Positions 4,438 through 28,103 of a stretch of 48,141 nucleotides of DNA are shown here, in pieces. Every line of letters starts with the position of its first letter. The first letter of the stretch is position 1. The position numbers and the translations under genes were made by a program. Below the pieces are notes generated by a model. That model made no database searches. It saw only the letters and a list, made by a program, of their open reading frames with translations, and had not been told where the DNA came from. This DNA comes from Escherichia virus Lambda_4B5, in the sequence record LR595863.1; one strand, written 5' to 3'.

Positions 4438-5737
4438 TCTCCCGCATATTGCCAGTATGGCCTTTAATGAGCCGCTGATGCTTGAACCCGCCTATGCGCG
4501 GGTTTTCTTTTGTGCGCTTGCAGGCCAGCTTGGGATCAGCCGCCTGACGGATGCGGTATCCGGCGACAGCCTGACTGCCGGAGAGGCACCCGCGGCGCTG
4601 GCGTTATCCGTTGATGATGACGGACCACGACAGGCCCGCAGTTATCAGGTCATGAACGGCATCGCCGTGCTGCCGGTGTCCGGCACGCTGGTCAGTCGGA
4701 CGCGAGCGCTGCAGCCGTATTCGGGGATGACCGGTTACAACGGCATTATCGCCCGTCTGCAACAGGCTGCCAGCGACCCGATGGTGGACGGCATTCTGCT
4801 CGATATGGATACGCCAGGCGGGATGGTGGCAGGGGCATTTGACTGCGCTGACATCATCGCCCGTGTGCGTGACATAAAGCCGGTATGGGCGCTGGCCAAC
4901 GACATGAACTGCAGTGCAGGTCAGTTGCTTGCCAGTGCCGCCTCCCGGCGTCTGGTCACGCAGACCGCCCGGACAGGCTCCATCGGCGTCATGATGGCTC
5001 ACAGTAATTACGGTGCTGCGCTGGAGAAACAGGGTGTGGAAATCACGCTGATTTACAGCGGCAGCCATAAGGTGGATGGCAACCCCTACAGCCATCTTCC
5101 GGATGACGTCCGGGAGACACTGCAGTCCCGGATGGACGCAACCCGCCGGATGTTTGCACAGAAGGTGTCGGCATATACCGGCCTGTCCGTGCAGGCTGTG
5201 CTGGATACCGAGGCTGCAGTGTACAGCGGTCAGGAGGCCATTGATGCCGGACTGGCTGATGAACTTGTTAACAGTACCGATGCGATCACCGTCATGCGTG
5301 ATGCACTGGATGCACGTAAATCCCGTCTCTCAGGAGGGCGAATGACCAAAGAGACTCAATCAACAACTGTTTCAGCCACTGCTTCGCAGGCTGACGTTAC
5401 TGAGGTGGTGCAAGCGACGGAGGGCGAGAACGCCAGCGCGGCGCAGCCGGACGTGAACGCGCAGATCACCGCAGCGGTTGCGGCAGAAAACAGTCGCATT
5501 ATGGGGATCCTCAACTGTGAGGAGGCTCACGGACGCGAAGAACAGGCACGCGTGCTGGCCGAAACCCCCGGTATGACCGTGGAAACGGCCCGCCGCATTC
5601 TGGCAGCTGCACCACAGAGTGCACAGGCGCGCAGTGACACTGCGCTGGATCGTCTGATGCAGGGGGCACCGGCACCGCTGGCTGCAGGTAACCCGGCATC
5701 TGATGCCGTTAACGATTTGCTGAACACACCAGTGTAA
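4418..5737 (+). CDS. C: Head maturation protease / scaffold
   Basis: GTG at 4418 preceded by GAGGAGGAG; product begins (M)TAELRNLPHIASMAFNEPLMLEPAYARVFF as in lambda gpC; the longer tool ORF from 4304 is an upstream extension. Confidence 0.9.
5132..5737 (+). CDS. nu3: Scaffolding protein, in-frame internal start within C
   Basis: Internal ATG at 5132 giving MDATRRMFAQKVSAYTGLSVQ, matching lambda Nu3 nested in C. Confidence 0.8.
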   Translation: MDATRRMFAQKVSAYTGLSVQAVLDTEAAVYSGQEAIDAGLADELVNSTDAITVMRDALDARKSRLSGGRMTKETQSTTVSATASQADVTEVVQATEGENASAAQPDVNAQITAAVAAENSRIMGILNCEEAHGREEQARVLAETPGMTVETARRILAAAPQSAQARSDTALDRLMQGAPAPLAAGNPASDAVNDLLNTPV

Positions 5738-5746
5738 GGGATGTTT

Positions 5747-6079
5747 ATGACGAGCAAAGAAACCTTTACCCATTACCAGCCGCTGGGCAACAGTGACCCG
5801 GCACATACGGCAACCGCGCCCGGCGGATTGAGTGCGAAAGCGCCTGCAATGACCCCGCTGATGCTGGACACCTCCACCCGTAAGCTGGTTGTGTGGGATG
5901 GCACCACCGACGGTGCTGCCGTTGGCATTCTGGCGGTTGCTGCTGACCAGACCAGCACCACGCTGACGTTCTACAAGTCCGGCACGTTCCGTTATGAGGA
6001 TGTGCTCTGGCCGGAGGCTGCCAGCGACGAGACGAAAAAACGGACCGCGTTTGCCGGAACGGCAATCAGCATCGTTTAA
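5747..6079 (+). CDS. D: Head decoration protein
   Basis: [12 protein letters not shown]... ending [10 protein letters not shown], matches lambda gpD; start taken at the internal Met of the tool ORF. Confidence 0.93.
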
Positions 6080-6134
6080 CCTTACCCTTCATCACTAAAG
6101 GCCGCCTGTGCGGCTTTTTTTACGGGATTTTTTT

Positions 6135-7160
6135 ATGTCGATGTACACAACCGCCCAGCTGCTGGCGGCAAATGAGAAGAAATTTAAGTTTGATCCGCTG
6201 TTTCTGCGTCTCTTTTTCCGTGAGAGCTATCCCTTCACCACGGAGAAAGTCTATCTCTCACAAATTCCGGGACTGGTAAACATGGCGCTGTACGTTTCGC
6301 CGATTGTTTCCGGTGAGGTTATCCGCTCCCGTGGCGGCTCCACCTCTGAATTTACACCGGGATATGTCAAGCCGAAGCATGAGGTGAATCCGCAGATGAC
6401 CCTGCGTCGCCTGCCGGATGAAGATCCACAGAATCTGGCGGACCCGGCTTACCGCCGCCGTCGCATCATTCTGCAGAACATGCGAGACGAAGAGCTGGCC
6501 ATTGCTCAGGTCGAAGAGATGCAGGCCGTTTCTGCCGTGCTTAAGGGCAAATATACCATGACCGGTGAAGCCTTCGATCCGGTTGAAGTGGATATGGGCC
6601 GCAGTGTGGCGAACAACATCACGCAGTCCGGCGGTACGGAGTGGAGCAAGCGTGACAAGTCCACGTATGACCCGACCGACGATATCGAAGCCTACGCGCT
6701 GAACGCCAGCGGTGTGGTGAATATCATCGTGTTTGATCCGAAAGGCTGGGCGCTGTTCCGTTCCTTCAAAGCCGTCAAGGAGAAGCTGGATACCCGTCGC
6801 GGCTCTCATTCCGAGCTGGAGACAGCGGTAAAAGATCTGGGCGAAGCGGTGTCCTATAAGGGGATGTATGGCGATACGGCGATCGTCGTGTATTCCGGAC
6901 AGTACGTGGAAAACGACGTCAAAAAGAACTTCCTGCCGGACAACACGATGGTGCTGGGGAACACTCAGGCACGCGGTCTGCGCACCTATGGCTGCATTCA
7001 GGATGCGGACGCACAGCGCGAAGGTATTAACGCCTCTGCCCGCTACCCGAAAAACTGGGTGACCACCGGCGATCCGGCGCGTGAGTTCACCATGATTCAG
7101 TCAGCACCGCTGATGCTGCTGGCTGACCCTGATGCGTTCGTGTCCGTACAACTGGCGTAA
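6135..7160 (+). CDS. E: Major capsid protein
   Basis: MSMYTTAQLLAANE... matches lambda gpE (341 aa); start at internal Met of the tool ORF. Confidence 0.95.
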   Translation: MSMYTTAQLLAANEKKFKFDPLFLRLFFRESYPFTTEKVYLSQIPGLVNMALYVSPIVSGEVIRSRGGSTSEFTPGYVKPKHEVNPQMTLRRLPDEDPQNLADPAYRRRRIILQNMRDEELAIAQVEEMQAVSAVLKGKYTMTGEAFDPVEVDMGRSVANNITQSGGTEWSKRDKSTYDPTDDIEAYALNASGVVNIIVFDPKGWALFRSFKAVKEKLDTRRGSHSELETAVKDLGEAVSYKGMYGDTAIVVYSGQYVENDVKKNFLPDNTMVLGNTQARGLRTYGCIQDADAQREGINASARYPKNWVTTGDPAREFTMIQSAPLMLLADPDAFVSVQLA

Positions 7161-7201
7161 TCATGGCCCTTCGGGGCCATTTTCTCTCTGTGGAGGAGTC
7201 C

Positions 7202-7597
7202 ATGACGAAAGATGAACTGATTGCCCGTCTTCAGGTGCTGGGTGAGCAACTGAACCGTGATGTCAGCCTGACGGGGACGAAAGAAGAACTGGCACTCCGT
7301 GTGGCAGAGCTGGAAGAGGAGCTTGATGACACGGATGACGCTGCTGGTCAGGACACATCTGTCAGCCCGGAAAATGCGCTGACCGGACATGAAAATGAGG
7401 TGGTATCAGCGCAGCCGGATACCGTGACTGATACGGCTGATCTGGTCACGGTTGTGGCACTGGTGACGCTGCATACTGATGCACTTCACGCCACGCGGGA
7501 TGAGGCTGTGGCATTTGTGCTGCCGGGAACGGCGTTCCGTGTCTCTGCCGGTGTGGCAGCTGAAATGACAGAGCGCGGCCTGGCCAGAATGCAATAA
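7202..7597 (+). CDS. FI: DNA packaging protein FI
   Basis: MTKDELIARL... ending MTERGLARMQ, matches lambda FI; internal start. Confidence 0.88.
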   Translation: MTKDELIARLQVLGEQLNRDVSLTGTKEELALRVAELEEELDDTDDAAGQDTSVSPENALTGHENEVVSAQPDTVTDTADLVTVVALVTLHTDALHATRDEAVAFVLPGTAFRVSAGVAAEMTERGLARMQ

Positions 7598-7608
7598 CGG
7601 GAGGCGCT

Positions 7609-7962
7609 GTGGCTGATTTCGATAACCTGTTCGATGCTGCCATTGCCCGCGCCGATGAAACGATACGCGGGTACATGGGAACGTCAGCCACCATGACATC
7701 CGGTGAGCAGTCCGGTGCTGTGATACGTGGTGTTTTTGATGATCCTGAAAATATCAGCTATGCCGGACAGGGCGTGCGCGTTGAAGGCTCCAGCCCGTTC
7801 CTGTTTGTCCGGACTGATGATGTGCGGCAGCTGCGGCGCGGCGACACGCTGACCATCGGTGAGGAAAACTTCTGGATAGACCGGATTTCGCCGGATGATG
7901 GCGGAAGCTGTCATCTCTGGCTTGGGCGGGGCGTACCGCCTGCCGTTAACCGTCGCCGCTGA
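7609..7962 (+). CDS. FII: Head-tail connector protein FII
   Basis: 117-aa ORF MADFDNLFDAAIARADETIRGYMG matches lambda FII. Confidence 0.93.
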   Translation: MADFDNLFDAAIARADETIRGYMGTSATMTSGEQSGAVIRGVFDDPENISYAGQGVRVEGSSPFLFVRTDDVRQLRRGDTLTIGEENFWIDRISPDDGGSCHLWLGRGVPPAVNRRR

Positions 7963-7973
7963 AAGGGGGATGT

Positions 7974-8552
7974 ATGGCCATAAAAGGTCTTGAGCAGGCC
8001 GTTGAAAACCTCAGCCGTATCAGCAGAACGGCGGTGCCCGGTGCCGCCGCAATGGCCATTAACCGCGTTGCTTCATCCGCGATATCGCAGTCGGCGTCAC
8101 AGGTTGCCCGTGAGACAAAGGTACGCCGGAAACTGGTAAAGGAAAGGGCCAGGCTGAAAAGGGCCACGGTCAAAAATCCGCAGGCCAGAATCAGGGTTAA
8201 CCGGGGGGATTTGCCCGTAATAAAGCTGGGTAACGCGCGGATTGTCCTGTCCCGACGCAGGCGTCGTAAAAAGGGGCAGCGTTCAGCCCTGAAAGGTGGC
8301 GGCAGCGTGCTTGTGGTGGGAAACCGTCGTATTCCCGGCGCGTTTATTCAGCAACTGAAAAATGGCCGCTGGCATGTTATGCAGCGTGTGGCCGGGAAAA
8401 ATCGTTACCCCATTGATGTGGTGAAAATTCCGATGGCGGTGCCGCTGACCACGGCGTTTAAACAGAATATTGAGCGGATACGGCGTGAGCGTCTTCCGAA
8501 AGAGCTGGGCTATGCGCTGCAGCATCAACTGAGGATGGTAATAAAGCGATGA
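7974..8552 (+). CDS. Z: Tail completion protein Z
   Basis: 192-aa ORF in lambda Z position and size. Confidence 0.9.
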   Translation: MAIKGLEQAVENLSRISRTAVPGAAAMAINRVASSAISQSASQVARETKVRRKLVKERARLKRATVKNPQARIRVNRGDLPVIKLGNARIVLSRRRRRKKGQRSALKGGGSVLVVGNRRIPGAFIQQLKNGRWHVMQRVAGKNRYPIDVVKIPMAVPLTTAFKQNIERIRRERLPKELGYALQHQLRMVIKR

Positions 8553-15520: not shown

Positions 15521-18500
15521 ATGGGTAAAGGCAGCAGTAAGGGGCATACCCCGCGCGAAGCGAAGGACAACCTGAAGTCCACGCAGCTGCTGAGTGTGAT
15601 CGATGCCATCAGCGAAGGGCCGGTTGAAGGTCCGGTGGATGGATTAAAAAGCGTGCTGCTGAACAGTACGCCGGTGCTGGACAGTGAGGGGAATACCAAT
15701 ATCTTCGGTGTCACGGTGGTGTTCCGGGCAGGTGAGCAGGAGCAGACTCCGCCGGAGGGGTTTGAATCCTCCGGCTCCGAGACGGTGCTGGGTACGGAAG
15801 TGAAATATGACATGCCGATCACCCGCACCATCACGTCGGCAAACATCGACCGTCTGCGCTTTACTTTCGGCGTGCAGGCACTGGTGGAAACTACCTCAAA
15901 GGGGGACAGGAATCCGTCGGAAGTCCGTCTGCTGGTTCAGATACAGCGTAATGGTGGCTGGGTGACGGAAAAAGACATCACCATTAAAGGCAAAACCACC
16001 TCGCAGTATCTGGCCTCGGTGGTGGTGGATAACCTGCCGCCGCGCCCGTTTAATATCCGGATGCGCAGGATGACGCCGGACAGCACCACAGACCAGCTGC
16101 AGAACAAAACGCTCTGGTCGTCATACACCGAAATCATCGATGTGAAACAGGGCTACCCGAACACGGCACTGGTCGGCGTGCAGGTGGACTCGGAACAGTT
16201 CGGCAGTCAGCAGGTGAGCCGTAATTATCATCTTCGCGGGCGCATTCTGCAGGTGCCGTCGAACTATAACCCGCAGACGCGGCAATACAGCGGTATCTGG
16301 GACGGAACGTTAAAACCGGCATACAGCAACAACATGGCCTGGTGTCTGTGGGATATGCTGACCCATCCGCGCTACGGCATGGGAAAACGTCTTGGTGCGG
16401 CGGATGTGGATAAATGGGCGCTGTATGTCATCGGCCAGTACTGCGACCAGTCGGTGCCGGACGGCTTTGGCGGCACGGAGCCGCGCATTACCTGTAATGC
16501 GTACCTGACCACACAGCGCAAGGCGTGGGATGTGCTCAGTGATTTCTGCTCGGCGATGCGCTGTATGCCGGTATGGAACGGGCAGACGCTGACGTTCGTG
16601 CAGGACCGACCATCAGATAAGGTGTGGACCTATAACCGCAGTAATGTGGTGATGCCGGATGATGGCGCGCCGTTCCGCTACAGCTTCAGCGCCCTGAAGG
16701 ACCGCCATAATGCCGTTGAGGTGAACTGGATTGACCCGGATAACGGCTGGGAGACGGCGACAGAGCTCGTGGAGGATACGCAGGCCATTGCCCGTTACGG
16801 TCGTAATGTCACGAAGATGGATGCCTTTGGCTGTACCAGTCGGGGGCAGGCACACCGCGCCGGGCTGTGGCTGATTAAAACGGAACTGCTGGAAACGCAG
16901 ACCGTGGATTTCAGCGTCGGCGCAGAAGGGCTTCGCCATGTACCGGGCGATGTTATTGAAATCTGTGATGATGACTATGCCGGTATCAGCACCGGTGGTC
17001 GTGTGCTGGCGGTGAACAGCCAGACCCGGACGCTGACGCTCGACCGTGAAATCACGCTGCCATCCTCCGGTACCACGCTGATAAGCCTGGTTGACGGAAG
17101 TGGCAATCCGGTCAGCGTGGAGGTTCAGTCCGTCACCGACGGCGTGAAGGTAAAAGTGAGCCGTGTTCCTGACGGTGTTGCTGAATACAGCGTATGGGGG
17201 CTGAAGCTGCCGACGCTGCGCCAGCGCCTGTTCCGCTGTGTGAGTATCCGGGAGAACGATGACGGTACGTATGCCATCACCGCCGTGCAGCATGTACCGG
17301 AAAAAGAAGCCATCGTGGATAACGGGGCGCACTTTGACGGCGACCAGAGCGGCACGGTGAATGGTGTCACGCCGCCAGCGGTGCAGCACCTGACCGCCGA
17401 AGTCACCACAGACAGCGGGGAATATCAGGTGCTGGCGCGATGGGACACGCCGAAGGTGGTGAAGGGCGTGAGCTTCCTGCTTCGCCTTACCGTGGCAGCG
17501 GACGACGGCAGTGAGCGGCTGGTCAGCATGGCCCGGACGACGGAAACCACATACCGCTTCAGGCAACTGGCGCTGGGGAACTACAGGCTGACAGTCCGGG
17601 CGGTAAATGCGTGGGGGCAGCAGGGCGATCCGGCATCGGTATCGTTCCGGATTGCCGCACCGGCAGCGCCGTCGCAGATTGAGCTGACACCGGGGTATTT
17701 TCAGATAACCGCCACGCCCCATCTTGCCGTTTATGATCCGACGGTACAGTTTGAGTTCTGGTTCTCGGAAAAGCGGATTGCGGATATCAGGCAGGTTGAA
17801 ACCACAGCCCGCTATCTTGGCACGGCGCTGTACTGGATAGCTGCCAGTATCAATATCAAACCGGGCCATGATTATTATTTTTACATCCGCAGTGTGAACA
17901 CCGTTGGCAAATCGGCATTTGTGGAGGCTGTTGGCCAGCCGAGTGATGATGCATCCGGCTATCTGGATTTTTTCAAAGGCGAGATAGGGAAAAGCCATCT
18001 GGCTCAGGAGCTGTGGACGCAGATTGATAACGGTCAGCTTGCGCCTGACCTGGCTGAAATCAGGACGTCCATTACGGATGTCAGCAATGAAATCACGCAG
18101 ACCGTCAATAAGAAACTGGAAGACCAGAGTGCGGCAATTCAGCAGATACAGAAGGTTCAGGTTGATACAAATAATAACCTGAACAGCATGTGGGCTGTGA
18201 AGCTGCAGCAGATGCAGGACGGACGCCTTTATATCGCGGGTATTGGTGCCGGTATTGAGAACACCCCTGACGGCATGCAGAGTCAGGTGCTGCTGGCGGC
18301 GGACAGGATTGCGATGATTAATCCTGCGAATGGCAATACAAAGCCGATGTTTGTTGGGCAGGGCGATCAGATATTCATGAACGAAGTGTTCCTGAAATAT
18401 CTGACGGCTCCCACCATTACCAGCGGTGGCAATCCCCCAACGTTTTCACTGACACCTGATGGTCGACTTTCTGCGAGAAATGCGGATATCAGCGGTAACG

Positions 18501-19003
18501 TGAATGCGAACTCCGGGACGCTCAATAATGTCACGATTAACCAGAACTGTCGGATTCTGGGAAAACTGTCAGCTAACCAGATTGAAGGTGATATTGTCAA
18601 AACGGTGGGAAAAGCCTTTCCGAGAAATGGCAGTTATGCCAGCGGTACAATAACGGTCACTGTGTACGATGACCAGGCTTTTGACCGTCAGATAGTCGTC
18701 CCCCCCGTTCTGTTTCGCGGTGGTAAGCATGAAAACTTCAACAGCAACAACCAACAGTCATACTGGTATTCAACCTGTAAGCTGCAGGTGCTGAAGAACG
18801 GACAGGAAATCTTTCAGCAACCCGCGACGGATGTCAGCAGGGTATTTTCATCAGTCATTGATATGCCTGCCGGACACGGCCATGTCACCCTGACTTTCAA
18901 TGTTTCTTCATATGGTGCAAATAACTGGACGCCAACGACCAGTATCAGCGACCTTCTTGTTGTCGTGATGAAGAAATCAACAGCCGGCATCAGTATCAGT
19001 TGA
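15521..19003 (+). CDS. J: Central tail fibre / host-specificity protein J
   Basis: 1160-aa ORF starting [34 protein letters not shown], matches lambda gpJ over most of its length; C-terminal receptor-binding portion diverges from what I remember. Confidence 0.93.
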
Positions 19004-19024
19004 ATTTTAAAACCCAAATTCGGG

Positions 19025-19038
19025 CACCAGAAATGGTG
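19025..19038. repeat. Target-site duplication, left copy (CACCAGAAATGGTG)
   Basis: Identical 14-nt string abuts both ends of the IS4 copy (also at 20465..20478). Confidence 0.8.
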
Positions 19039-20464
19039 TAATGCCAGTCAGTTAAGCAACTGACTGGCTCTTTTTCGGGGCTGTGGGGTATTTCCAGGGC
19101 CTCTCCTTTACCACTCTCGGGAAGGCCCTTTCCCTTCTTGTCGGTAATTTCACAAGTTGTCCCATACTTGCAAGATCGCGCATCAGCTCCGGTATACGTC
19201 CCGGTGAAGCGCCCTGCAATGTCATCAGCATTCTCATCACCATTCCGCATGATTCTGAGAAACTCAGTTGATTCGGCCAGTAACCTTTCAGATGTTCCGC
19301 CATTTTAATCATCTGATATCTCACCAGATTATAAGCCAGTAAGACACCCCACAGCTCTTGCTCCACAAGCTCCGGCTTTTTACTTCTCAGCGTCAGCCTG
19401 CTCCGTTGCATCGTCTGTTTTATCTCCCTGTATCCCAGTTCGATTTCCCAGCGATGACTGTACAGATCCCCCATTTCTCCTCCGGGGAAGCGCATGGCGT
19501 CCGTCATCGACGTCAGCAGATGGCAGACTTTTCCTTTGCGCGTCACGGTCAGCAGGCGGGCAGTCACTTCATTTCCCAGTCCCGGCCACTTTTTTCGTGC
19601 CTGCGGGCTGGTTTTCAGCTTCACCAGATGATCGCCTTTACCCAGTTTTCTGATCTCTTCATATTGCGCTCCCTTTCTGAGAGGTATCATCCAGTGGCGG
19701 TGTTCTCCCGCCAGGCTCCAGGCATTTAACAGTCCCAGTGAGTAATAACCTTTATCCATTAACGTCAGAGTGTTATCGCCGGTTTGTTCTATAAGTTGCT
19801 CAGCAAGCTCATTTTCGCTGTTCTTCATCGTGCCGAAGGCTGCAGCCGTCAGCAGATGGCTGGTCAGTTCCATCTGGCAGACCATTTTGACCTGCGGGTA
19901 GAGCGCCGGGTTCCCGGCATGTGTCTGGCGGGGGAAGGCTGCATCGTTCTCTGGTGTATCCGGTGTGCGCCAGAACACACCATCGATGGCCAGCAGGGTC
20001 AGGCCGCACCAGTGCGGATGCGGCGTGGCGTTATGCCAGAGCTGCGCTGTTTTCGTGAACACGCGGCGGACAGCCTCACTTCCCAGGCGCTGGCGGGCCT
20101 GAATAACGGCACTGGGGGCAACGAAGGGGCGATTGCCCGGCAGCATGATGTCCAGGCGATTCACAATCTGGTGAAGAGGTTCTTTACGCTCAAGCGCCAT
20201 GCCAACAATACACCAGACCATCATTTCGAGGGGAAGACGGCGCTTGCGTAGCGTTACAGTACCTGATTCGGCAAGGCAACGAGAGATGAGTTCGGGGTCG
20301 AGGTAATCCCCCAGAGAAGTCAGTGGGTTACGCAGAGAATCGTAACGGGATACCAGATCAAGAGCCTGTCCAATGTGCATAAAAAAATCCGGAAACAAGT
20401 GAGCGTTTCCGGATTCTTACACAGCCACTGGATCGGTCAACTGATCCTTAACTGATCGGCATTA
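19039..20464 (-). mobile_element. IS4: IS4 insertion sequence (1426 bp)
   Basis: Imperfect 18-bp terminal inverted repeats (TAATGCCAGTCAGTTAAG at left; complement of CTTAACTGATCGGCATTA at right), single transposase ORF, flanking direct repeat. Confidence 0.9.
19052..20380 (-). CDS. insG: IS4 transposase (DDE family)
   Basis: Translation [40 protein letters not shown]... matches remembered E. coli IS4 transposase; start set at the internal Met of the tool ORF. Confidence 0.88.
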
Positions 20465-20478
20465 CACCAGAAATGGTG
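20465..20478. repeat. Target-site duplication, right copy (CACCAGAAATGGTG)
   Basis: See left copy; followed by GCC TTTTTT completing the disrupted terminator hairpin. Confidence 0.8.
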
Positions 20479-20501
20479 CCTTTTTTATTTGTGGAGTGAA
20501 T

Positions 20502-22523
20502 ATGGCAGTACAGATTTCAGGTGTGCTGAAAGACGGTGCAGGAAAACCGATACAGAACTGCACCATTCAGCTCAAAGCAAAACGTAACAGCACCACAGTT
20601 GTGGTGAACACGGTGGCCTCAGAAAATCCGGATGAAGCCGGACGTTACAGCATGGATGTTGAGTATGGCCAGTACAGCGTCGCCCTGCTGGTTGAAGGTT
20701 TTCCGCCTTCACATGCCGGGACCATCACCGTGTATGAGGATTCTAAGCCGGGGACATTGAATGATTTTCTGGGCGCTGCAACAGAAGATGATGTTTGTCC
20801 GGAGGCACTGTATCGTTTTGAAAAGATGGTGGAAGAGGCGGCACGCAACGCTGAAGCCGCCTCTCAGAGCGCAGCGGCAGCAAAGAAATCAGAAACAGCA
20901 GCGGCATCGTCCAGGAACGCGGCGAAAACATCAGAGACGAATGCAGGTAACAGCGCGAAAGCGGCAGCTTCTTCAAAAACAGCCGCACAAAACGCAGCAA
21001 CAGCGGCAGAACGTTCAGAGACAAATGCCCGTGCGTCAGAAGAAGCCTCCGCAGACAGTGAAGAGGCTTCCCGCCGTAATGCAGAGTCAGCCGCTGAAAA
21101 TGCCGGAGTCGCCACCACAAAAGCGCGGGAGGCCGCAGCAGACGCAACAAAGGCCGGGCAGAAAAAGGATGAGGCTCTGTCGGCAGCGACACGAGCTGAA
21201 AAGGCGGCAGACCGCGCAGAAGCCGCAGCGGAAGTGACTGCAGAGCCCTGTGCGAATATAGTGCCGCCGCTGCCTGATGTGTGGATACCGTTTAACGATT
21301 CACTGGATATGATTACGGGTTTTTCGCCATCTTATAAAAAGATAGTTATTGGTGACGATGAAATAACAATGCCAGGCGACAAGATTGTTAAGTTTAAACG
21401 TGCTTCAACAGCAACGTATATTAATAAGTCCGGCCAACTCAAGCTTGCTGAAGTTGACGAACCGCGATTTGAGCGCGATGGCTTATTGATTGAAGGACAG
21501 AGGACAAATTATCTGAGGAACTCAAATAAACCAGACTCATGGACTGTTCATTCCGCACTGAATAAAACATTTGGCACTGATAAACAGGGGTTCAATTATG
21601 CCACGGTGACACCCACGGAAAGTATAGTGGGAACAACAGGTGGCTATACTGTGCATGGTGTGGTTGCAGCAGACAGATTCCCGCTGGCAAGTGGTGAATG
21701 TTTCACTTTTTCGTGCCGGGTTAAAGGCGCTAAAGCACGATGCAGGTTAAGAGTTTCAGTTATTATTGGTGGAACAGATACCTTCTCTGCTGACTCTTAT
21801 CTTGATCTGGATACCCGGATCGCAACAGTAAGCGGTAATACATCCCTTATAACAGCCAAAGCTGAACAACAGGGCGAGTGGACCTACTATGAGGCCACTT
21901 ATACAGCTAATACGGACATTGATACCGTTAACTGTGCTTTTTATATGACAAATAAAATAAGTAATGAGCCATTCTATGATGACTCAACATTAACCATGAC
22001 GACGCCGCAAATTGAACTGGGCAATACGGCATCGTCATTTATTGTAACTACAATGCCAACAACACGCGCAAGTGATGTAGTTACTATCCCATCGCAGAAT
22101 AACCTGTCAACACGGCCTTTTACGGTATTGTGCGAAGTAAGCAGGAACTGGAGTACACCGCCCAATGTTGCGCCAAGGATATTTGATGTTGGAGGGCACA
22201 GTATTGATGATAATTATTTATCGCTGGGGTTTGTTGCAACAGGAAAGATAAGCGCCAACGTAGGAATGGTTCAGCCACAAATTGCCTCAGATGGAGAAAG
22301 GTTCATTGTGGGTGTGAGAGCTAAATCTGATTTATCAGTAAATGCAATATGCAATGGTAATTATACAACAAACCTTAATGGTAAAATATTTGGAGTTACA
22401 GCAACATCGTACCGGTTTGGTGGGCAGACCGCAGCAGGAACGCGTCATTTGTTTGGACACATCAGAAATTTCAGAGTCTGGTTTAAAGAATTAAATGACA
22501 GGCAAATCAAGGAGGCAGTATGA
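20502..22523 (+). CDS. stf: Side tail fibre protein
   Basis: N-terminus MAVQISGVLKDGAGKPIQNCTIQLKAKRNSTTVVVNTV matches lambda Stf; Ala/Ser-rich repeat shaft; distinct C-terminal domain. Confidence 0.88.
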   Translation: MAVQISGVLKDGAGKPIQNCTIQLKAKRNSTTVVVNTVASENPDEAGRYSMDVEYGQYSVALLVEGFPPSHAGTITVYEDSKPGTLNDFLGAATEDDVCPEALYRFEKMVEEAARNAEAASQSAAAAKKSETAAASSRNAAKTSETNAGNSAKAAASSKTAAQNAATAAERSETNARASEEASADSEEASRRNAESAAENAGVATTKAREAAADATKAGQKKDEALSAATRAEKAADRAEAAAEVTAEPCANIVPPLPDVWIPFNDSLDMITGFSPSYKKIVIGDDEITMPGDKIVKFKRASTATYINKSGQLKLAEVDEPRFERDGLLIEGQRTNYLRNSNKPDSWTVHSALNKTFGTDKQGFNYATVTPTESIVGTTGGYTVHGVVAADRFPLASGECFTFSCRVKGAKARCRLRVSVIIGGTDTFSADSYLDLDTRIATVSGNTSLITAKAEQQGEWTYYEATYTANTDIDTVNCAFYMTNKISNEPFYDDSTLTMTTPQIELGNTASSFIVTTMPTTRASDVVTIPSQNNLSTRPFTVLCEVSRNWSTPPNVAPRIFDVGGHSIDDNYLSLGFVATGKISANVGMVQPQIASDGERFIVGVRAKSDLSVNAICNGNYTTNLNGKIFGVTATSYRFGGQTAAGTRHLFGHIRNFRVWFKELNDRQIKEAV

Positions 22524-22798
22524 AAGATTTAACTTTGAAATTTCCTGGTAACAGAGAGTTTAAATCCTTCCTGTCATCTCTTGACTGGGAGGAGGATGAA
22601 GACCTCCAGAATAAACTGTTAGTCGATGAAATTGGTTTCACCTACACAGAAACAGGGGTAACAGAAGAGGGAGAACCTGTCTGTGTCCGGAATGACGGTT
22701 ATTTTGTCAACATTCGCATTCTTGATGACTTGTTTGATGTTTCTGTATTCTCTGATTATGTCGTGGAGCTGGAAACACCGCTTCGGGAATGGAGCTGA
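22520..22798 (+). CDS. Hypothetical acidic protein coupled to stf (possible fibre chaperone or accessory protein)
   Basis: 92-aa ORF whose ATG overlaps the stf stop (ATGA); no resemblance to lambda Tfa that I can see. Confidence 0.55.
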   Translation: MKDLTLKFPGNREFKSFLSSLDWEEDEDLQNKLLVDEIGFTYTETGVTEEGEPVCVRNDGYFVNIRILDDLFDVSVFSDYVVELETPLREWS

Positions 22799-22810
22799 AA
22801 GGAGGAAATA

Positions 22811-23104
22811 ATGGATATAAGCCCCTTACTTCATGCACTTTGTGCTGTGGCTGCGCAGATACTGGTTGGTCTTTTTACCGGAAACTGGGCTTACGGAGCG
22901 ATAGCCGGTTGTACGTTCTTCATTGCGCGTGAACATACCCAGGCAGAATATCGCTGGATTGAAATGTTCGGGCATGGCAAGCGAATGAATATGCCGTGGT
23001 GGGGCGGTTTTGATCCGCGAGCTTGGGATGTGGCAAGCCTGATGGATTTTGCTGTGCCGGTGGTGGCGTGTCTGCTGGTCTGGCTGTTGGTTAATCGTGG
23101 GTGA
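22811..23104 (+). CDS. Hypothetical small membrane protein
   Basis: 97-aa ORF with GGAAA RBS-like sequence upstream and two hydrophobic segments (N-terminal and C-terminal). Confidence 0.55.
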   Translation: MDISPLLHALCAVAAQILVGLFTGNWAYGAIAGCTFFIAREHTQAEYRWIEMFGHGKRMNMPWWGGFDPRAWDVASLMDFAVPVVACLLVWLLVNRG

Positions 23105-23195
23105 AAAAAGGTGAGCTGTATATGCAACGGAGGAAGAAACCCCGTTGCTGGAAGCCAGGAAAAAGTATCGGGTGTTGCTGTCCTCGGATGTTGTG

Positions 23196-24053
23196 CTAAT
23201 TGGGTGATAACAGATCCTGTGTATGGGAGTTTCCCTTTTTGCGTGCGTTGATGCTGGTAACGGCAAACGTCATGATGAACAAAACCGCGAATAAGACGAC
23301 AATCGTCGGAGCTGGTGCGCTGTCGATAAAAAAGGACAACCAGACACCAGTCATTGACACTATTACCGATATGCCAGTCGCCAGTAGGAGCGCAATATGA
23401 AAGCGTTGTGTCAGGAGTACCGCAATGGCGCCAGGCGCAATGAGCAGAGAAATGGAGAGAATGATACCTACCGCTTTCAGCGTCGCCACAATGGTCAGAG
23501 AGACCATGCACAGCAGCCCATAATGCAGCCATCTCGTATGCAAACCGCTTACCTGCGCCTGTTGATAATCAAAGCTGAACAGCAAAAAATCCCGCCATTT
23601 TACGCTAATAACAAGTGTAACCAGCCCGGCAATAATCATCGTCTGGATTATATCGCCGATGGTTATCCCGAGCATGTCGCCGAAAAGAATATGGTCAAGA
23701 TGTACGTCTGGTTTGACTGCAATATACAAGATCAGACCTGCGGCAAACATGCCAGAAAAAACAATCCCCATCACTGTATCTTGCTTGATTCGGCTGTTGT
23801 CTTTCAGGTATCCCGTCGCCACCGCGCAGAATACTCCGGCGACGAATGCCCCTGTAGCCAAAGGTAACCCCAGAATCCAGGCAAGCACGATGCCAGGAAA
23901 AACCGCATGACTCATCGCGTCACCCATCAGTGCCCAACCTTTCAGGACCAGAAAGACCGACAGCAGCGCACAGGGTATGGAAACTACCAGTGAAATCAGC
24001 AGTGCGTGACTCATAAAGGTGAACTGCAGTGGCTCCAGTAATAATGCCATCAT
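23196..24053 (-). CDS. sitD: Mn/Fe ABC transporter permease
   Basis: 285-aa polytopic membrane protein, last gene of a four-gene metal ABC operon; 4-bp overlap with upstream permease. Confidence 0.85.
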   Translation of the reverse strand: MMALLLEPLQFTFMSHALLISLVVSIPCALLSVFLVLKGWALMGDAMSHAVFPGIVLAWILGLPLATGAFVAGVFCAVATGYLKDNSRIKQDTVMGIVFSGMFAAGLILYIAVKPDVHLDHILFGDMLGITIGDIIQTMIIAGLVTLVISVKWRDFLLFSFDYQQAQVSGLHTRWLHYGLLCMVSLTIVATLKAVGIILSISLLIAPGAIAVLLTQRFHIALLLATGISVIVSMTGVWLSFFIDSAPAPTIVVLFAVLFIMTFAVTSINARKKGNSHTQDLLSPN

Positions 24054-24907
24054 GAGCGATCCTCCAGCGCCTTATGCGCACGCCGACGATTTGCCAAAAG
24101 CCCATGGGTGGGCGCAAAGACAAATGCTAAAAGAAACAGCAGTGTCTGCGCCACCACGATGATTCCACCTGTCGCGCCGTCCAGAAAGTAACTGACCCAC
24201 GCGCCGAGGAAACTGGTTACACTGCCAATAGTTACAGCAATCATGAGCAGGCGGGGAAAACGATCGGTTAACAACCATGCTGTTGCACCGGGAGTCACCA
24301 CCAGACAGATCACCAGAAAGGCACCAACCGTTTGCAGCGCCGCAACGGTCGAAACCGACAGCAGGGTGAAGAAGAGGAGTTTTAATCTGCCCGGATGCAA
24401 TCCAATAGCACGGGCGTGATTCTCGTCGAAAAAGGTCACCATAAGATCTTTCCATTTGAAAAAAAGCACGATGATCGAGAGAATGCCAATGATAGTGAGT
24501 TGCAGGATATCCGCCGGATCGATTGCCAGAATATTGCCCAGGACGATGGTCTGAATGTTCACAGATGTCGGGTTCAATGACACCATAAACAGCCCCAGGC
24601 CAAAAAAGGACGAGAAGATCAGACCGATGATGGCATCTTCTTTTAAGCGGGTGCGTTGGTTAAGAAACAGCATGCTGCCCGCAGCCAGTCCGCCGGAAAA
24701 GAAGGCTCCCAGAGAAAACGGAAGCCCCAGCATATATGCCCCCGCAACACCCGGGACAATAGAGTGCGACAACGCATCGCCAATCAGCGACCAGCCTTTT
24801 AGCATCAGATAGCATGACAGGAAAGCGCAGAGACCGCCGACCATCGCCGAGACCCACATCGCATTGAGCATATATTCATAGCTGAAGGGTTCCAGTAGCA
24901 CGTTCAT
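24050..24907 (-). CDS. sitC: Mn/Fe ABC transporter permease
   Basis: 285-aa polytopic membrane protein of the same family, overlapping neighbours by 4 bp. Confidence 0.85.
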
Positions 24908-25731
24908 CTTTCTTCCCTCTGCACCGCTGACGGTCGATGAGCCACAAAAGGGCGTTCATCGTCAGTAATAATGCTTTCTTCCGAGCCGTTAAGTGTGACA
25001 TGGCGCAGTACGCCGCTAAAAGCCAGCTCTAGGTTCTCGGCTGTAAAAGTGGTGTCTGTCGGCCCGCTTGCCAGGACGGTGCCTTTGACCATGACCGTAT
25101 AATCGCAAAATGTCGTGACGGATCCGAGATTGTGTGTTGAGACAAGCATCGTTTTGCCTTCCGCGCGTAACTCCCTCAACAGGCTGATGATTTTGGCTTC
25201 GGTTTTCACATCAACGCCAGTAAAAGGTTCATCCAGCAGGATCACATCACCCTGCTGTGCAATCGCTCTCGCCAGAAAGACGCGTTTCTTTTGTCCACCG
25301 GAAAGCTCGCCGATTTGTCGATGGCGAAAATTCACCATATCGACACGTTCCAGCGCATCGGTGACAATTTGACGATCCCTCTTTTTGGCGATACGCAACA
25401 TACCCATATGCCCATAGCGGCCCATCATCACCACATCTTCCACCAGTACAGGAAATGACCAGTCAACATCTTCTGACTGAGGGACGTAGGCAACCAGGTT
25501 TTTCTGTAACGCCTGTCGCGTGGGAATACCCAGAACAGATATCTTTCCGCTGGTCAGACGCACAAATCCCATAATCGCTTTAAACAACGTCGATTTTCCG
25601 GAACCGTTTACCCCAACCAGAGCGGCAATAGATCCACTTGGTACTGTGAAGGATGCATCGCGCAGTGCTGTGTGCCCGTTACGCCAGGTGACAGTAACAT
25701 CATTAACGACAATGCCTGCAGATTGCATCAT
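24904..25731 (-). CDS. sitB: Mn/Fe ABC transporter ATP-binding protein
   Basis: Walker [13 protein letters not shown] signature LSGGQKKR, Walker B ILLDEP. Confidence 0.9.
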
Positions 25732-26645
25732 TATTTCTCCCTTTTCCCAGCTTTAATTCCCTGTACCAGCGTACTGGTAGTAACCTTAAGAAGGTCGATA
25801 TACGTCGGTACCGGGCCGTTTTCTGTGCTCAGGGAATCGACATAGAGCACACCGCCGTAGTGTGCGCCGGTTTCACGCGCAACCTGACGCGCTGGTTTAT
25901 CGGAAATCGTACTCTCGCTAAAGACTGCCGGGATATGATTTTTCTTAACTATATCAACAACCTTACGTACCTGCTGCGGTGTTCCTTGTTGATCGGCATT
26001 AATCGGCCACAGATAAAGCTCTTTTAGCCCCAAATCGCGTGCGAGATAAGAAAAAGCCCCTTCACTGGTGACCATCCATCGCTGATTCTCAGGGAGTTCC
26101 GTAATCTGCTTACGCAGGGGGGCAAGGGTTTGGGTAATCTTGGCTTTATAAGTATCGGCATTGCGTTGGTAGGTTTGTGCATTTGCCGGATCGTATTTTA
26201 TCAACGCATCACGAATATTATCGACGTAAATCAGAGCATTATCTGGCGACATCCATGCATGGGGGTTAGGTTTGCCCTCATAGGGTCCTTCGGTGATCCC
26301 TACAGGCGTCACACCCGAAGAGACAATTACTTCTGGAACCCCATTGAGATGCTGGTAAAAGCGTTGGAACCACAATTCCAGATTCATACCATTGGCGAGA
26401 ATCAGTTGTGCCCCCTGCGCACGTTTAATATCGCCAGGGGTAGGCTGATACTCATGAATTTCTGCACCAGGCTTGGTTATGGATGAGACTTCTGCAGCAT
26501 CTCCCGCCACGTTTTTGGCCATATCCGCGATGATGGTAAATGTTGTAATGACCTTGAATTTTTCAGTTGCACTTGCCTGAAATGCGATCGAGCAGGTGAG
26601 TGCGAGCCCCCCCAAGAGCATGGTTACTTTTTTTATCGAGTGCAT
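25731..26645 (-). CDS. sitA: Periplasmic metal-binding protein (cluster A-I solute-binding protein)
   Basis: 304-aa protein with N-terminal signal peptide, His/Glu metal-ligand pattern of SitA/YfeA/MntC-type binding proteins. Confidence 0.88.
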
Positions 26646-26677
26646 AATTTAGTACCTATAGTGAGCAAAATTAGAAC

Positions 26678-26699
26678 AAACATAGCAACGGCTATGTTT
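26678..26699 (-). promoter_or_regulatory. MntR box (Mn-responsive repressor site) in the sitA promoter
   Basis: Near-perfect palindrome AAACATAGC-AACG-GCTATGTTT about 35 bp upstream of sitA ATG, matching the E. coli MntR operator as I remember it from mntH. Confidence 0.7.
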
Positions 26700-26718
26700 T
26701 ATAGCACAGCCTATACAA

Positions 26719-26738
26719 AATGAAAATGATTATCATTA
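26719..26738 (-). promoter_or_regulatory. Fur box in the sitA promoter
   Basis: AAAATGAAAATGATTATCATTAG resembles the Fur consensus GATAATGATAATCATTATC. Confidence 0.65.
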
Positions 26739-27038
26739 GCAGCTTTGAGGCCCAAAACAGGGATTAGGTTGTTTCCTGCTGGCGACGCGTTATTGAGGAA
26801 AAAAGTAAGGCAGCTAGTAGGCTTTGAAATAACGTTTTGCGGTTGGCTGATGCAATTTCGAGAGTGCATGTATTGAATGATTTCTAGCCGTTACTGATTT
26901 TCGTATTTTTTGTATGGGAGGATTTGCACCTCCCCCCACCGAGCCTCCATGACTTTACTCCACTGTCTCTAGGGCTGCTGTGTGCCAGGAGCGGAAGCAG
27001 GGGGGGCCAGAGACTCCTTAAAAGTTGATAGCTCGTTT

Positions 27039-27136
27039 TGCAGGGAGACTTACACGGTAAGCGTTATTCCGAAGAGCTTAAAATTGAAGCAGTCAAACGG
27101 GTTGTTGAGCGTGTTTATGCGCTGCCATCTGATTAA
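27039..27136 (+). pseudogene. Remnant of an IS3-family transposase OrfA N-terminus
   Basis: Short frame translating ...GKRYSEELKIEAVKRVVERVYALPSD* resembles the conserved N-terminus of IS3-family OrfA proteins; truncated at both ends. Confidence 0.35.
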
Positions 27137-27332
27137 TCGACGGAAGCAGTTCCGTTTGGTCTATGATGCAGTTGTCCGGCAGGCGCTCTGTGACGCAAAA
27201 GAACGATAGGAGTAGCATTGAAGTGAACGAGGTTATGCTTGTCTTATATTATCCTCTATTTTAAAAACATCAGCTGGTTGTGTAAGAGTTTTTATTGTTT
27301 TATCTTGTTGACTTTGCTTTTATGAAAACAGA

Positions 27333-28103
27333 GTGATTGATACAATGAAAACCTTAAGTGGGAAAGAGTTTAGGAAATTATTTAATCGTTATGAGACAGG
27401 ATTCTATCTAAGTGAGTTTGAATACTTAAAGGACTTTGATCCTTTGTTTCCTGAATGCGTAGGGAAAGAATTAAAGTTGGGTTATAAACGAAAAGTTGAT
27501 GTATGGTGCGAAGAGGATGCTGCGCTATATGCAGAATTTATAGCTACAAAAGAAAGGCTGAAAAGAGGCCGGTTAATCCTAAAAATAAACCAAGTGTGGT
27601 CGCGTGTATATCCTGCTTATATTTATGCAATTGAAGAAAGAATAAATGTCAGGGCAAAGGGGAGAGAGTCATTTAAGTATGAAACTGTGCAAGAAAAACA
27701 ATGTAAACTTTCCATAATGTTAGATGGTCTGAAAGACCTTGAATGTGAAATAGCTATGATTTCAAGTGAGTTTGAAATTGAAAAACACTCTATGCACTAT
27801 TTTTATATGATTTTTGATATTGAACGCTATATAAATGACTGCAGTTACTTTGTTTTTTCTGCTGCTAAAGTTGTTAAAGGCGTGATTCAATGCATTGGTT
27901 ACATTGACAAAAATAACAAAGCAAGTTGCGATGAATTTTATTCAGGCAGCTATGAATGCTTGGATGATGATCAGGAAACACTGAACTATTTAAATGAATC
28001 ATGCGCAGAGGGTATAGACGCTGATAAAGATCTCATCAGGAAGAATGAGTTATTAGCCTTATCCCTGAAGGAATTGTATCAACTTCTCGTTTCAAAAAAA
28101 TAA
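27333..28103 (+). CDS. Hypothetical protein, AT-rich orphan
   Basis: 256-aa ORF in a markedly AT-rich segment between the sit operon and attP; no family recognised. Confidence 0.7.
   Translation: MIDTMKTLSGKEFRKLFNRYETGFYLSEFEYLKDFDPLFPECVGKELKLGYKRKVDVWCEEDAALYAEFIATKERLKRGRLILKINQVWSRVYPAYIYAIEERINVRAKGRESFKYETVQEKQCKLSIMLDGLKDLECEIAMISSEFEIEKHSMHYFYMIFDIERYINDCSYFVFSAAKVVKGVIQCIGYIDKNNKASCDEFYSGSYECLDDDQETLNYLNESCAEGIDADKDLIRKNELLALSLKELYQLLVSKK

Follow-up and report, generated by a model that had tools for sequence, protein, structure and literature searches.

Escherichia virus Lambda_4B5 (LR595863.1; 48,141 nucleotides (nt), the whole of which is called the window here) carries two small open reading frames (ORFs) between its side tail fibre gene, stf, and the sit operon on the other strand: ORF92, encoding an acidic protein of 92 amino acids (aa), and ORF97, encoding a membrane protein of 97 aa. 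An earlier note on this DNA had the coordinates and layout right, and suggested that the pair might be a novel fibre chaperone plus a membrane accessory protein. Judged from comparison of sequences and gene orders across phages and prophages, the two genes are not one module and have different jobs. The reading we favour, with somewhat better than even confidence, is that ORF92 is the cognate partner of a fibre tip of the gene transfer agent (GTA) head-spike type, and ORF97 an independent membrane protein. The earlier suggestion is partly right: ORF92 is a good candidate for a fibre partner unrelated to Tfa, but ORF97 is no fibre accessory.

The sequence is not new: databases already list both genes as hypothetical proteins. 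Phage 21 is among their carriers, with ORF92 annotated 'hypothetical protein' and ORF97 'putative membrane protein'. No characterisation of either protein was found in the literature on phage 21, lambdoid stf chaperones, DT57C LtfA/LtfB, the BASEL collection, a tail-fibre structure atlas or rV5 proteomics. What is new is the comparative pattern: a candidate fibre-tip helper, followed by a common and conserved prophage membrane protein without assigned function.

ORF92 and the distal part of the fibre

By its domain matches, Stf is lambda-like at the N-terminus only and carries a receptor-binding module of another kind distally. Residues 3-133 match PF08400 (Pfam, 2.8e-67), the N-terminal domain of prophage tail fibres, and to this extent the earlier description of a lambda-type stf holds; the distal part is instead of the NF048003 type (GTA_spike_fiber in NCBIfam), matched by residues 331-525 at 66.8 bits (E 3.5e-18). 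The curated NCBIfam cut-off of 36 bits was passed by this protein and also by the fibres of phages IrisVonRoten and tonn and of a Comamonas locus (L032). The protein matches phrog_1419 (1.5e-294). Pfam also returned a weak CBM_4_9 match, and no Peptidase_S74 domain was found in the window Stf by that scan. The C-terminal end is a conserved motif, GTRHLFGHIRNFRVWFKELNDRQIKEAV, common to the fibres of T1-like, T5-like, Dhillonvirus, Seuratvirus and rV5-like phages. Since the distal module is of another type, it is the whole of that module, and not tfa alone, that differs from lambda; a Tfa-type gene is not expected beside an NF048003-type tip, and none was seen adjoining one in the loci examined. 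Lateral fibres with such a module are believed, in the small siphoviruses and T5-like phages, to recognise surface glycans, O-antigen among them (PMC8594841).

Linkage of ORF92 to this kind of fibre was invariable. In 86 of 86 Escherichia prophage or phage loci retrieved, ORF92 starts 4 nt before the stop of stf (ATGA or GTGA), and the upstream Stf ends in a GTRHLFGHIRNFRVWFKELNDRQIKEAV-type motif. The window itself has ATGA, the stf stop TGA overlapping the ORF92 start ATG, as the earlier note had read it. A small ORF92-like ORF directly follows an NF048003-type fibre in all ten annotated phage records examined (phage 21, 2G7b and 1H12/Lambda_2E9, the last identical to the window; IrisVonRoten, tonn, KarlBarth, KurtStettler, FFH1, EmilHeitz and SA126VB), where NF048003 was scanned directly in the window, IrisVonRoten and tonn and assigned in the other records by tblastn similarity of the C-terminal 200 aa, and where the small ORF of SA126VB was assigned by position and size only. 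ORF92 was also found directly after the fibre at every annotated virulent-phage locus examined, seven in all, from T1-like, T5-like, Dhillonvirus, Seuratvirus and rV5-like phages.

More broadly, tblastn located ORF92 homologues in 143 phage records at 42-54% identity; among the listed matches that carry annotation, every one abuts a tail fibre or tail protein gene. They include the T1-like phages tonn, tunus, JK16 and MatMar, the T5-like phages IrisVonRoten, EC142 and VSe12, the Dhillonvirus KarlBarth and the Seuratvirus KurtStettler. The last 200 residues of Stf were matched in 204 records, the surplus including rV5-like myophages and more T5-like phages. Two small ORFs after the fibre, EmilHeitz bas49_0027 and FFH1 gp081, are diverged ORF92 homologues by hhalign (98.3% and 97.9%, respectively), and both match phrog_1361. 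A prophage of Comamonas thiooxydans has an NF048003 fibre of 401 aa, and the gene overlapping its stop as ATGA encodes a protein of 188 aa. Residues 1-91 of the latter match phrog_18574 (3.6e-12); ORF92 of the window matches the same family (1.2e-5), which suggests that the Comamonas protein is a remote relative, although direct hhalign of the 188-aa protein against the ORF92 alignment was not significant. Clusters of ORF92 with a source name come almost only from Escherichia or Shigella. Coliphage-type fibre and ORF92 sequences were also encountered in records labelled Campylobacter or Listeria phage (MG065652, MG065692, MG065676, OR848352, OR847733) and in a 'Collinsella' contig (L007) from a metagenome-assembled genome; these are probably contamination or mislabelling.

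ORF92 is an acidic protein (isoelectric point 4.05; 22 D+E vs 8 K+R) without a hydrophobic segment and with a conserved C-terminal tail, P-L-R-E-W. Residues 1-91 align with positions 1-91 of 92 of phrog_1361 (1.6e-39), a family labelled 'unknown function'. The earlier note had asked whether the protein is a standard Tfa-like fragment; no PF02413 (Caudo_TAP) match was found, and no fibre chaperone is among the fold matches listed. Among viral models, the only Foldseek matches of ORF92 were other phage proteins, about 65-120 aa long and likewise uncharacterised (best E 3.6e-5). For both ORFs, Pfam at E up to 1 gave chance matches only (LUD_dom at 0.1; PhoR at 0.037), and neither was matched by NCBIfam, by the anti-phage defence and exclusion models of PADLOC-DB (E up to 1) or by profile searches against PDB sequences.

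Purifying selection acts on both ORFs: the ratio of non-synonymous to synonymous substitution rates (dN/dS) between alleles was 0.27-0.41 for ORF92 and 0.16-0.34 for ORF97. That one or both are non-functional leftovers or annotation artefacts is scarcely credible. The records examined annotate no function for either, and one E. coli copy of ORF97 has an internal stop; yet dN/dS lies far under 1, both ORFs have strong ribosome-binding sites and confident AlphaFold2 models, and both are conserved in hundreds of phages and genomes, with hundreds of homologues each.

Gene order makes ORF92 a likely fibre-dedicated partner; whether it is specifically a chaperone is, on the same sequence grounds, an even call. 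In the proposed mechanism ORF92 would be made in step with Stf through the stop/start coupling, would work as a cytoplasmic factor dedicated to the folding or oligomerisation of the distal Stf module, and may stay bound to the fibre as a small subunit; it would thus fill a Tfa-like role for its own tip type, though an unrelated protein. A dedicated assembly factor is suggested by the fixed position after one tip type, the coupling, the small size, the acidity and the absence of a membrane segment. Divergence of ORF92 follows the last 60 residues of the fibre (Spearman 0.75) better than the last 400 (0.63), which suggests that any binding to the fibre would probably be to the conserved C-terminal motif and not to the part that sets specificity. 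A role as a specificity-determining adhesin was considered and dropped, ORF92 remaining 90-93% identical where the 400-aa receptor-binding region falls to 40%.

This reading of ORF92 is drawn from gene order, and two points weigh against it. The covariation with the fibre end could also stem from linkage through a recombination breakpoint, which lies about 110 nt ahead of the stop of stf; and at each of the seven virulent-phage loci examined a fibre gene stands on either side of ORF92, an arrangement equally compatible with a role as adaptor. As the structural adaptor of a branched fibre, ORF92 would sit on the tip of fibre A (Stf) and dock a second fibre, B, which the lineage of the window would have lost while keeping the adaptor. 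The order fibre A, ORF92-like gene, fibre B recurs in those seven loci and in some prophages, and branched lateral fibres are established in the T5-like phage DT57C (PMC4728585). Fibre B proteins, despite unrelated bodies, have a common N-terminal peptide, M-x-T-x-T-x-I-P-x-D-I-x-x-L-K, which suggests a common docking partner. It is present in fibre B of prophages (MATSTVIPDDIKTLK in those of the 2G7b type) and of T1-like, T5-like, Dhillonvirus and Seuratvirus phages, and looks like a universal docking peptide for branched fibres; the bodies behind it often end in Peptidase_S74, as do both prophage ones scanned. The constant partner of the peptide could be either ORF92 itself or the conserved tip of fibre A. 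Against the adaptor, prophages without a second fibre gene, the window included, have ORF92 of three subfamilies, at about 100%, 90% and 60% identity to that of the window, and these retain purifying selection and the 4-nt coupling. In EmilHeitz the gene after the ORF92-like ORF lacks the docking peptide, and the LtfA of DT57C is of a different type, with an S74 C-terminal domain and no such small protein reported in the paper. We regard the adaptor as a serious rival but the less likely reading, and prefer the dedicated assembly factor.

ORF97, a membrane protein independent of the fibre

Residues 1-96 of ORF97 align with positions 1-96 of 97 of phrog_1443 (2.4e-58), and only PHROGs labelled 'unknown function' were matched. 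The earlier note had counted two hydrophobic segments; two hydrophobic regions are indeed present, refined by AlphaFold2 (pLDDT 92.7) to three predicted helices (4-23, 26-52 and 74-96), the first region being kinked. A near-invariant core, AREHTQAEYRWI...G.G.R.NMPWWGGFD.R.W, is accompanied by H8 and Q16 in helix 1; H8, R40, E41, Q44 and E46 are among the invariant residues. The conserved loop (40-73) holds about 5.3 K+R against fewer than 1 in each of the other extramembrane segments, which argues for a cytoplasmic loop; a TMHMM note in the phage 21 record places it, to the contrary, in the periplasm. The C-terminal tail has 2-4 residues and on average about 0.4 K+R.

Clustering of the family gave 577 groups at 90% identity, and 440 representatives were counted at 50%; it ranges over four proteobacterial classes. 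Identity is still about 60% between E. coli phages and Comamonas or Aeromonas, across gamma- and beta-proteobacteria. In an exhaustive profile search aimed at fusions to known domains, the best 150 of the 440 matches were stand-alone proteins of 58-146 aa. A Pfam scan of 53 distant relatives gave nothing significant, one of them showing a weak Phage_holin_8 match (0.0036), and Foldseek against viral models found no link. A separate 46-aa PHROG, phrog_34165, corresponds to the C-terminal half of ORF97, and partial ORF97-like matches occur in several virulent phages, those of HC6, ST1UNAM, PBM-2 and KFSST3 in stretches without an annotated gene; truncated or split copies may be common.

Does ORF97 work together with ORF92? 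The two lie 6-12 nt apart in most Escherichia lambdoid prophages, the order fibre, ORF92-like gene, ORF97 recurs in Comamonas, and both look co-transcribed with stf in the window; conservation as a pair, raised in the earlier note, is to this extent real. It breaks down elsewhere. The seven virulent-phage loci examined have the fibre and ORF92 and none has ORF97, and no T1-like or T5-like record is among the ORF97 tblastn matches listed. A whole fibre gene can stand between the two genes in some related prophages. ORF97 occurs without ORF92 after tailspikes, P2-type fibres and the targets of diversity-generating retroelements (DGRs), and at chromosomal loci outside prophages; and ORF92 is nearly confined to Escherichia and Shigella among named clusters, vs four proteobacterial classes for ORF97. 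A cooperating two-gene fibre module of chaperone and membrane accessory is therefore very improbable. Identity of ORF97 is uncorrelated with that of the fibre (rho 0.03), and since virulent loci with fibre and ORF92 do without it, ORF97 is very probably dispensable for building the fibre, as far as gene content can indicate. A receptor-specific blocker of the Cor/Llp type was also considered for ORF97, and dropped for want of covariation with the fibre.

The contexts of ORF97 are diverse. The P2-like Halomonas myophage phiHAP-1 has its homologue upstream of the sheath gene, with its start overlapping the final part of a Tfa-like gene. In the P22-like Escherichia phage Gally it follows the tailspike and a terminator-like hairpin with a 9-bp stem, directly before int; a weak promoter-like site precedes it, where promoter counts are not above shuffled expectation, and the surroundings look like a moron layout. 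In two beta-proteobacterial prophages ORF97 lies between a DGR target gene and bAvd/RT; prophages of Comamonas and Acidovorax have it after the last fibre genes, with the lysis cassette following. The DGR hosts are Comamonas nitrativorans and Pigmentiphaga humi (L033 and L035, about 4785-8054), with a putative variable target gene of 383 or 370 aa, bAvd (PF22296, 2.4e-32), a reverse transcriptase and, after bAvd, a 51-aa target-like fragment that is probably the template repeat.

In chromosomal contexts that appear free of prophages, five Aeromonas loci keep the synteny pirin-ORF97-RIO1 with no phage genes nearby, and from this the family may have a host function. The Aeromonas order is PolB, a 210-340 aa protein (uncalled in one locus), pirin and ORF97, with RIO1 kinase and lipid A acyltransferases on the opposite strand. 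Other chromosomal copies lie by what we read as metE-like and urtABC-like genes in Leclercia, and by ligA-like genes in sphingomonads.

Across temperate phages of three morphotypes, ORF97 recurs as the last gene of the receptor-binding module. Two of its positions, tailspike-int (P22-like) and fibre-assembly gene-FI (P2-like), match what we take to be lysogenic conversion sites. From this recurrent position and the match to conversion sites we favour an envelope-directed role: ORF97 would be an independent inner-membrane protein, last in the receptor-binding module of temperate phages, with the host envelope as its target and superinfection exclusion or lysogenic conversion as possible effects. 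The specific suggestion of exclusion or conversion, drawn by analogy, is tentative and stands below an even chance. It has to contend with the lack of a predicted promoter for ORF97 in the window, where the gene looks late-transcribed rather than prophage-expressed, with partial homologues in some virulent Aeromonas jumbo phages, with a conservation across bacterial classes that is unusually high for an exclusion protein, and with the conflicting placement of the loop by K+R count (cytoplasmic) and TMHMM note (periplasmic).

The other candidate role is that of a holin-like or lysis-timing membrane protein. A protein of about 100 aa with three predicted helices would suit it; in the Comamonas/Acidovorax prophages ORF97 is directly upstream of a lysis cassette (a lysozyme with an N-terminal hydrophobic anchor, and Rz/Rz1), in one beta-proteobacterial case it overlaps the next membrane-protein gene, and the weak Phage_holin_8 match of a distant relative points the same way. 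However, no lysis gene adjoins ORF97 in the window or in phage 21, where its neighbours are ORF92 and sitD, and the beta-proteobacterial cassettes each hold another membrane protein able to be the holin. ORF97 has no highly charged C-terminal tail; it has an invariant charged loop, non-prophage chromosomal copies in Aeromonas and a strong cross-class conservation of a kind atypical of holins. A holin-like role is improbable, and less likely than the envelope-directed role.

Layout of the locus and its neighbours

Both small genes are preceded by strong Shine-Dalgarno sites (Table 1) and are separated by 12 nt. No promoter-like or terminator-like site was found by a scan of the window between stf and the end of ORF97, from which both look like the tail of the stf transcript; an Rfam scan of 18500-27500 found no RNA element. 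On the opposite strand, sitD ends at 23196, 92 nt past ORF97. In phage 21 sitDCBA is likewise annotated after both small genes, which indicates that sit is phage-borne cargo. Many IMG/VR prophage calls stop exactly at the ORF97 stop codon, leaving sit out.

The region 21500-23150 is 100% identical to other lambdoid coliphages, including Lambda_2E9 and 1H12, and phage 21 shows about 94% identity over the two small genes together with the final ~100 nt of stf. The two-gene segment (22520-23104) was matched in 1903 of 5426 complete E. coli genomes.

Between J and stf, an IS4 element separates stf-ORF92-ORF97 from the late genes upstream. It is bracketed by a 14-nt direct repeat, CACCAGAAATGGTG (19025-19038 and 20465-20478); Lambda_2E9, ev087 and other phages are contiguous at this point, and the insert matches 'transposase InsG'. 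The insertion may uncouple the three genes from late transcription in this prophage. The duplicated target, CACCAGAAATGGTG, is itself the stem-loop of a terminator-like hairpin in the J-stf spacer.

In some prophages a tfa gene fragment follows ORF97 (Qin-like and DLP12-like), with a Pin-type invertase as well in the Qin-like ones; these look like remnants of an older invertible fibre-tip module of lambda/Mu type beside the NF048003 fibre.

Table 1. Coordinates of the features discussed, in the window and in retrieved loci (L numbers)
Feature	Locus	Coordinates	Strand	Remarks
stf, side tail fibre gene	window	20496..22523	+	675 aa; from the open reading frames of the window
ORF92	window	22520..22798	+	92 aa; acidic alpha/beta protein, cytoplasmic; candidate assembly factor or partner of the fibre
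ORF97	window	22811..23104	+	97-aa small polytopic inner-membrane protein; phrog_1443 match, AlphaFold2 model
Shine-Dalgarno site AAGGAGG for ORF92	window	22509..22515	+	within the end of stf, 4 nt upstream of ATG; direct reading
Shine-Dalgarno site AAGGAGG for ORF97	window	22799..22805	+	5 nt upstream of ATG; direct reading
sitDCBA, iron/manganese ABC transporter	window	23196..26645	-	convergent cargo operon; right-hand boundary, outside the module
IS4 (InsG transposase)	window	19039..20464	-	inserted between J and stf; from direct repeats and comparison with relatives
sitABCD operon	L001	4785-8234		convergent to the late operon, directly after ORF97
Second fibre gene after ORF92 homologue	L002	3298-4002
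Second fibre gene after ORF92 homologue	L006	4918-5958
Second fibre gene after ORF92 homologue	L152	3927-4964
Second fibre gene after ORF92 homologue	L154	5289-7013
Second fibre gene after ORF92 homologue	L155	4792-5466
Second fibre gene after ORF92 homologue	L156	4270-4566
Second fibre gene after ORF92 homologue	L157	4289-5821
Second fibre gene after ORF92 homologue	L163	3881-5623
ORF97 region of Gally	L159	4260-4788		tailspike, hairpin, ORF97 homologue, int
Aeromonas chromosomal ORF97 loci	L004, L009, L011, L015, L016	around 6001-6300
tfa-fragment/invertase remnants after ORF97	L002	4326-5124
tfa-fragment/invertase remnants after ORF97	L006	6522-7112
tfa-fragment/invertase remnants after ORF97	L153	5315-5425

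Relation to known systems and significance

The position of ORF92 directly after a fibre gene recalls lambda Tfa, P2 G and Mu U (PF02413, Caudo_TAP) and T4 gp38, whose products are needed for the distal part of the fibre only. Unlike Tfa-type proteins, ORF92 is half their size, has no PF02413 sequence match and no chaperone among its listed fold matches, and accompanies the NF048003 module rather than a tip of lambda/T4 type. Endosialidase-type fibres solve tip folding in another way, by an intramolecular chaperone, Peptidase_S74 (PF13884); some related prophages encode one in the optional second fibre gene that separates ORF92 from ORF97. S74, however, is a self-cleaving C-terminal domain of the fibre itself, whereas ORF92 is a separate protein and the window Stf has no S74. 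In DT57C, LtfA and LtfB are encoded by tandem fibre genes, the second fibre being attached through the first (PMC4728585, PMC10713586). A similar tandem layout surrounds the ORF92 homologues of IrisVonRoten, FFH1 and tonn; the window, unlike DT57C (LtfA with an S74 end and no intervening small protein reported), has a single fibre gene.

Small polytopic inner-membrane exclusion proteins are encoded among late or structural genes, HK97 gp15, T4 Imm and P22 SieA being examples, and these serve as a working analogy for ORF97. No sequence relation to them was found, and ORF97, unlike them, is conserved across classes and has chromosomal copies. Conversion loci also follow receptor-binding genes, as do P22 gtrABC and Sf6 oac (tailspike-int) and P2 Z/fun (G-FI). 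The homologues in Gally and phiHAP-1 presumably occupy such positions, although Gtr, Oac and Fun proteins are all dissimilar to ORF97.

In its widest form the proposal has two parts: that ORF92 founds a widespread new class of assembly factors or adaptors for a glycan-binding module of the GTA-head-spike type, in lambdoid, T1-like, T5-like, Dhillonvirus, Queuovirinae and rV5-like phages, and that ORF97 is a new, broadly conserved envelope-acting protein, for example a generic superinfection-exclusion factor added to the end of any receptor-binding module in several morphotypes. That both parts hold together is rather unlikely. Many coliphages, some of the BASEL collection among them, have lateral fibres with the NF048003-type module. 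If ORF92 is an obligatory helper or adaptor, it must move together with the fibre tip in chimeric fibres made to reprogram host range, and the few known fibre chaperones would gain a new family of unrelated structure. ORF97, for its part, is found in roughly one in three complete E. coli genomes and is conserved across proteobacterial classes, yet Pfam has no family for it; if a part in exclusion or envelope biology were established, it would account for a prophage gene that is very common.

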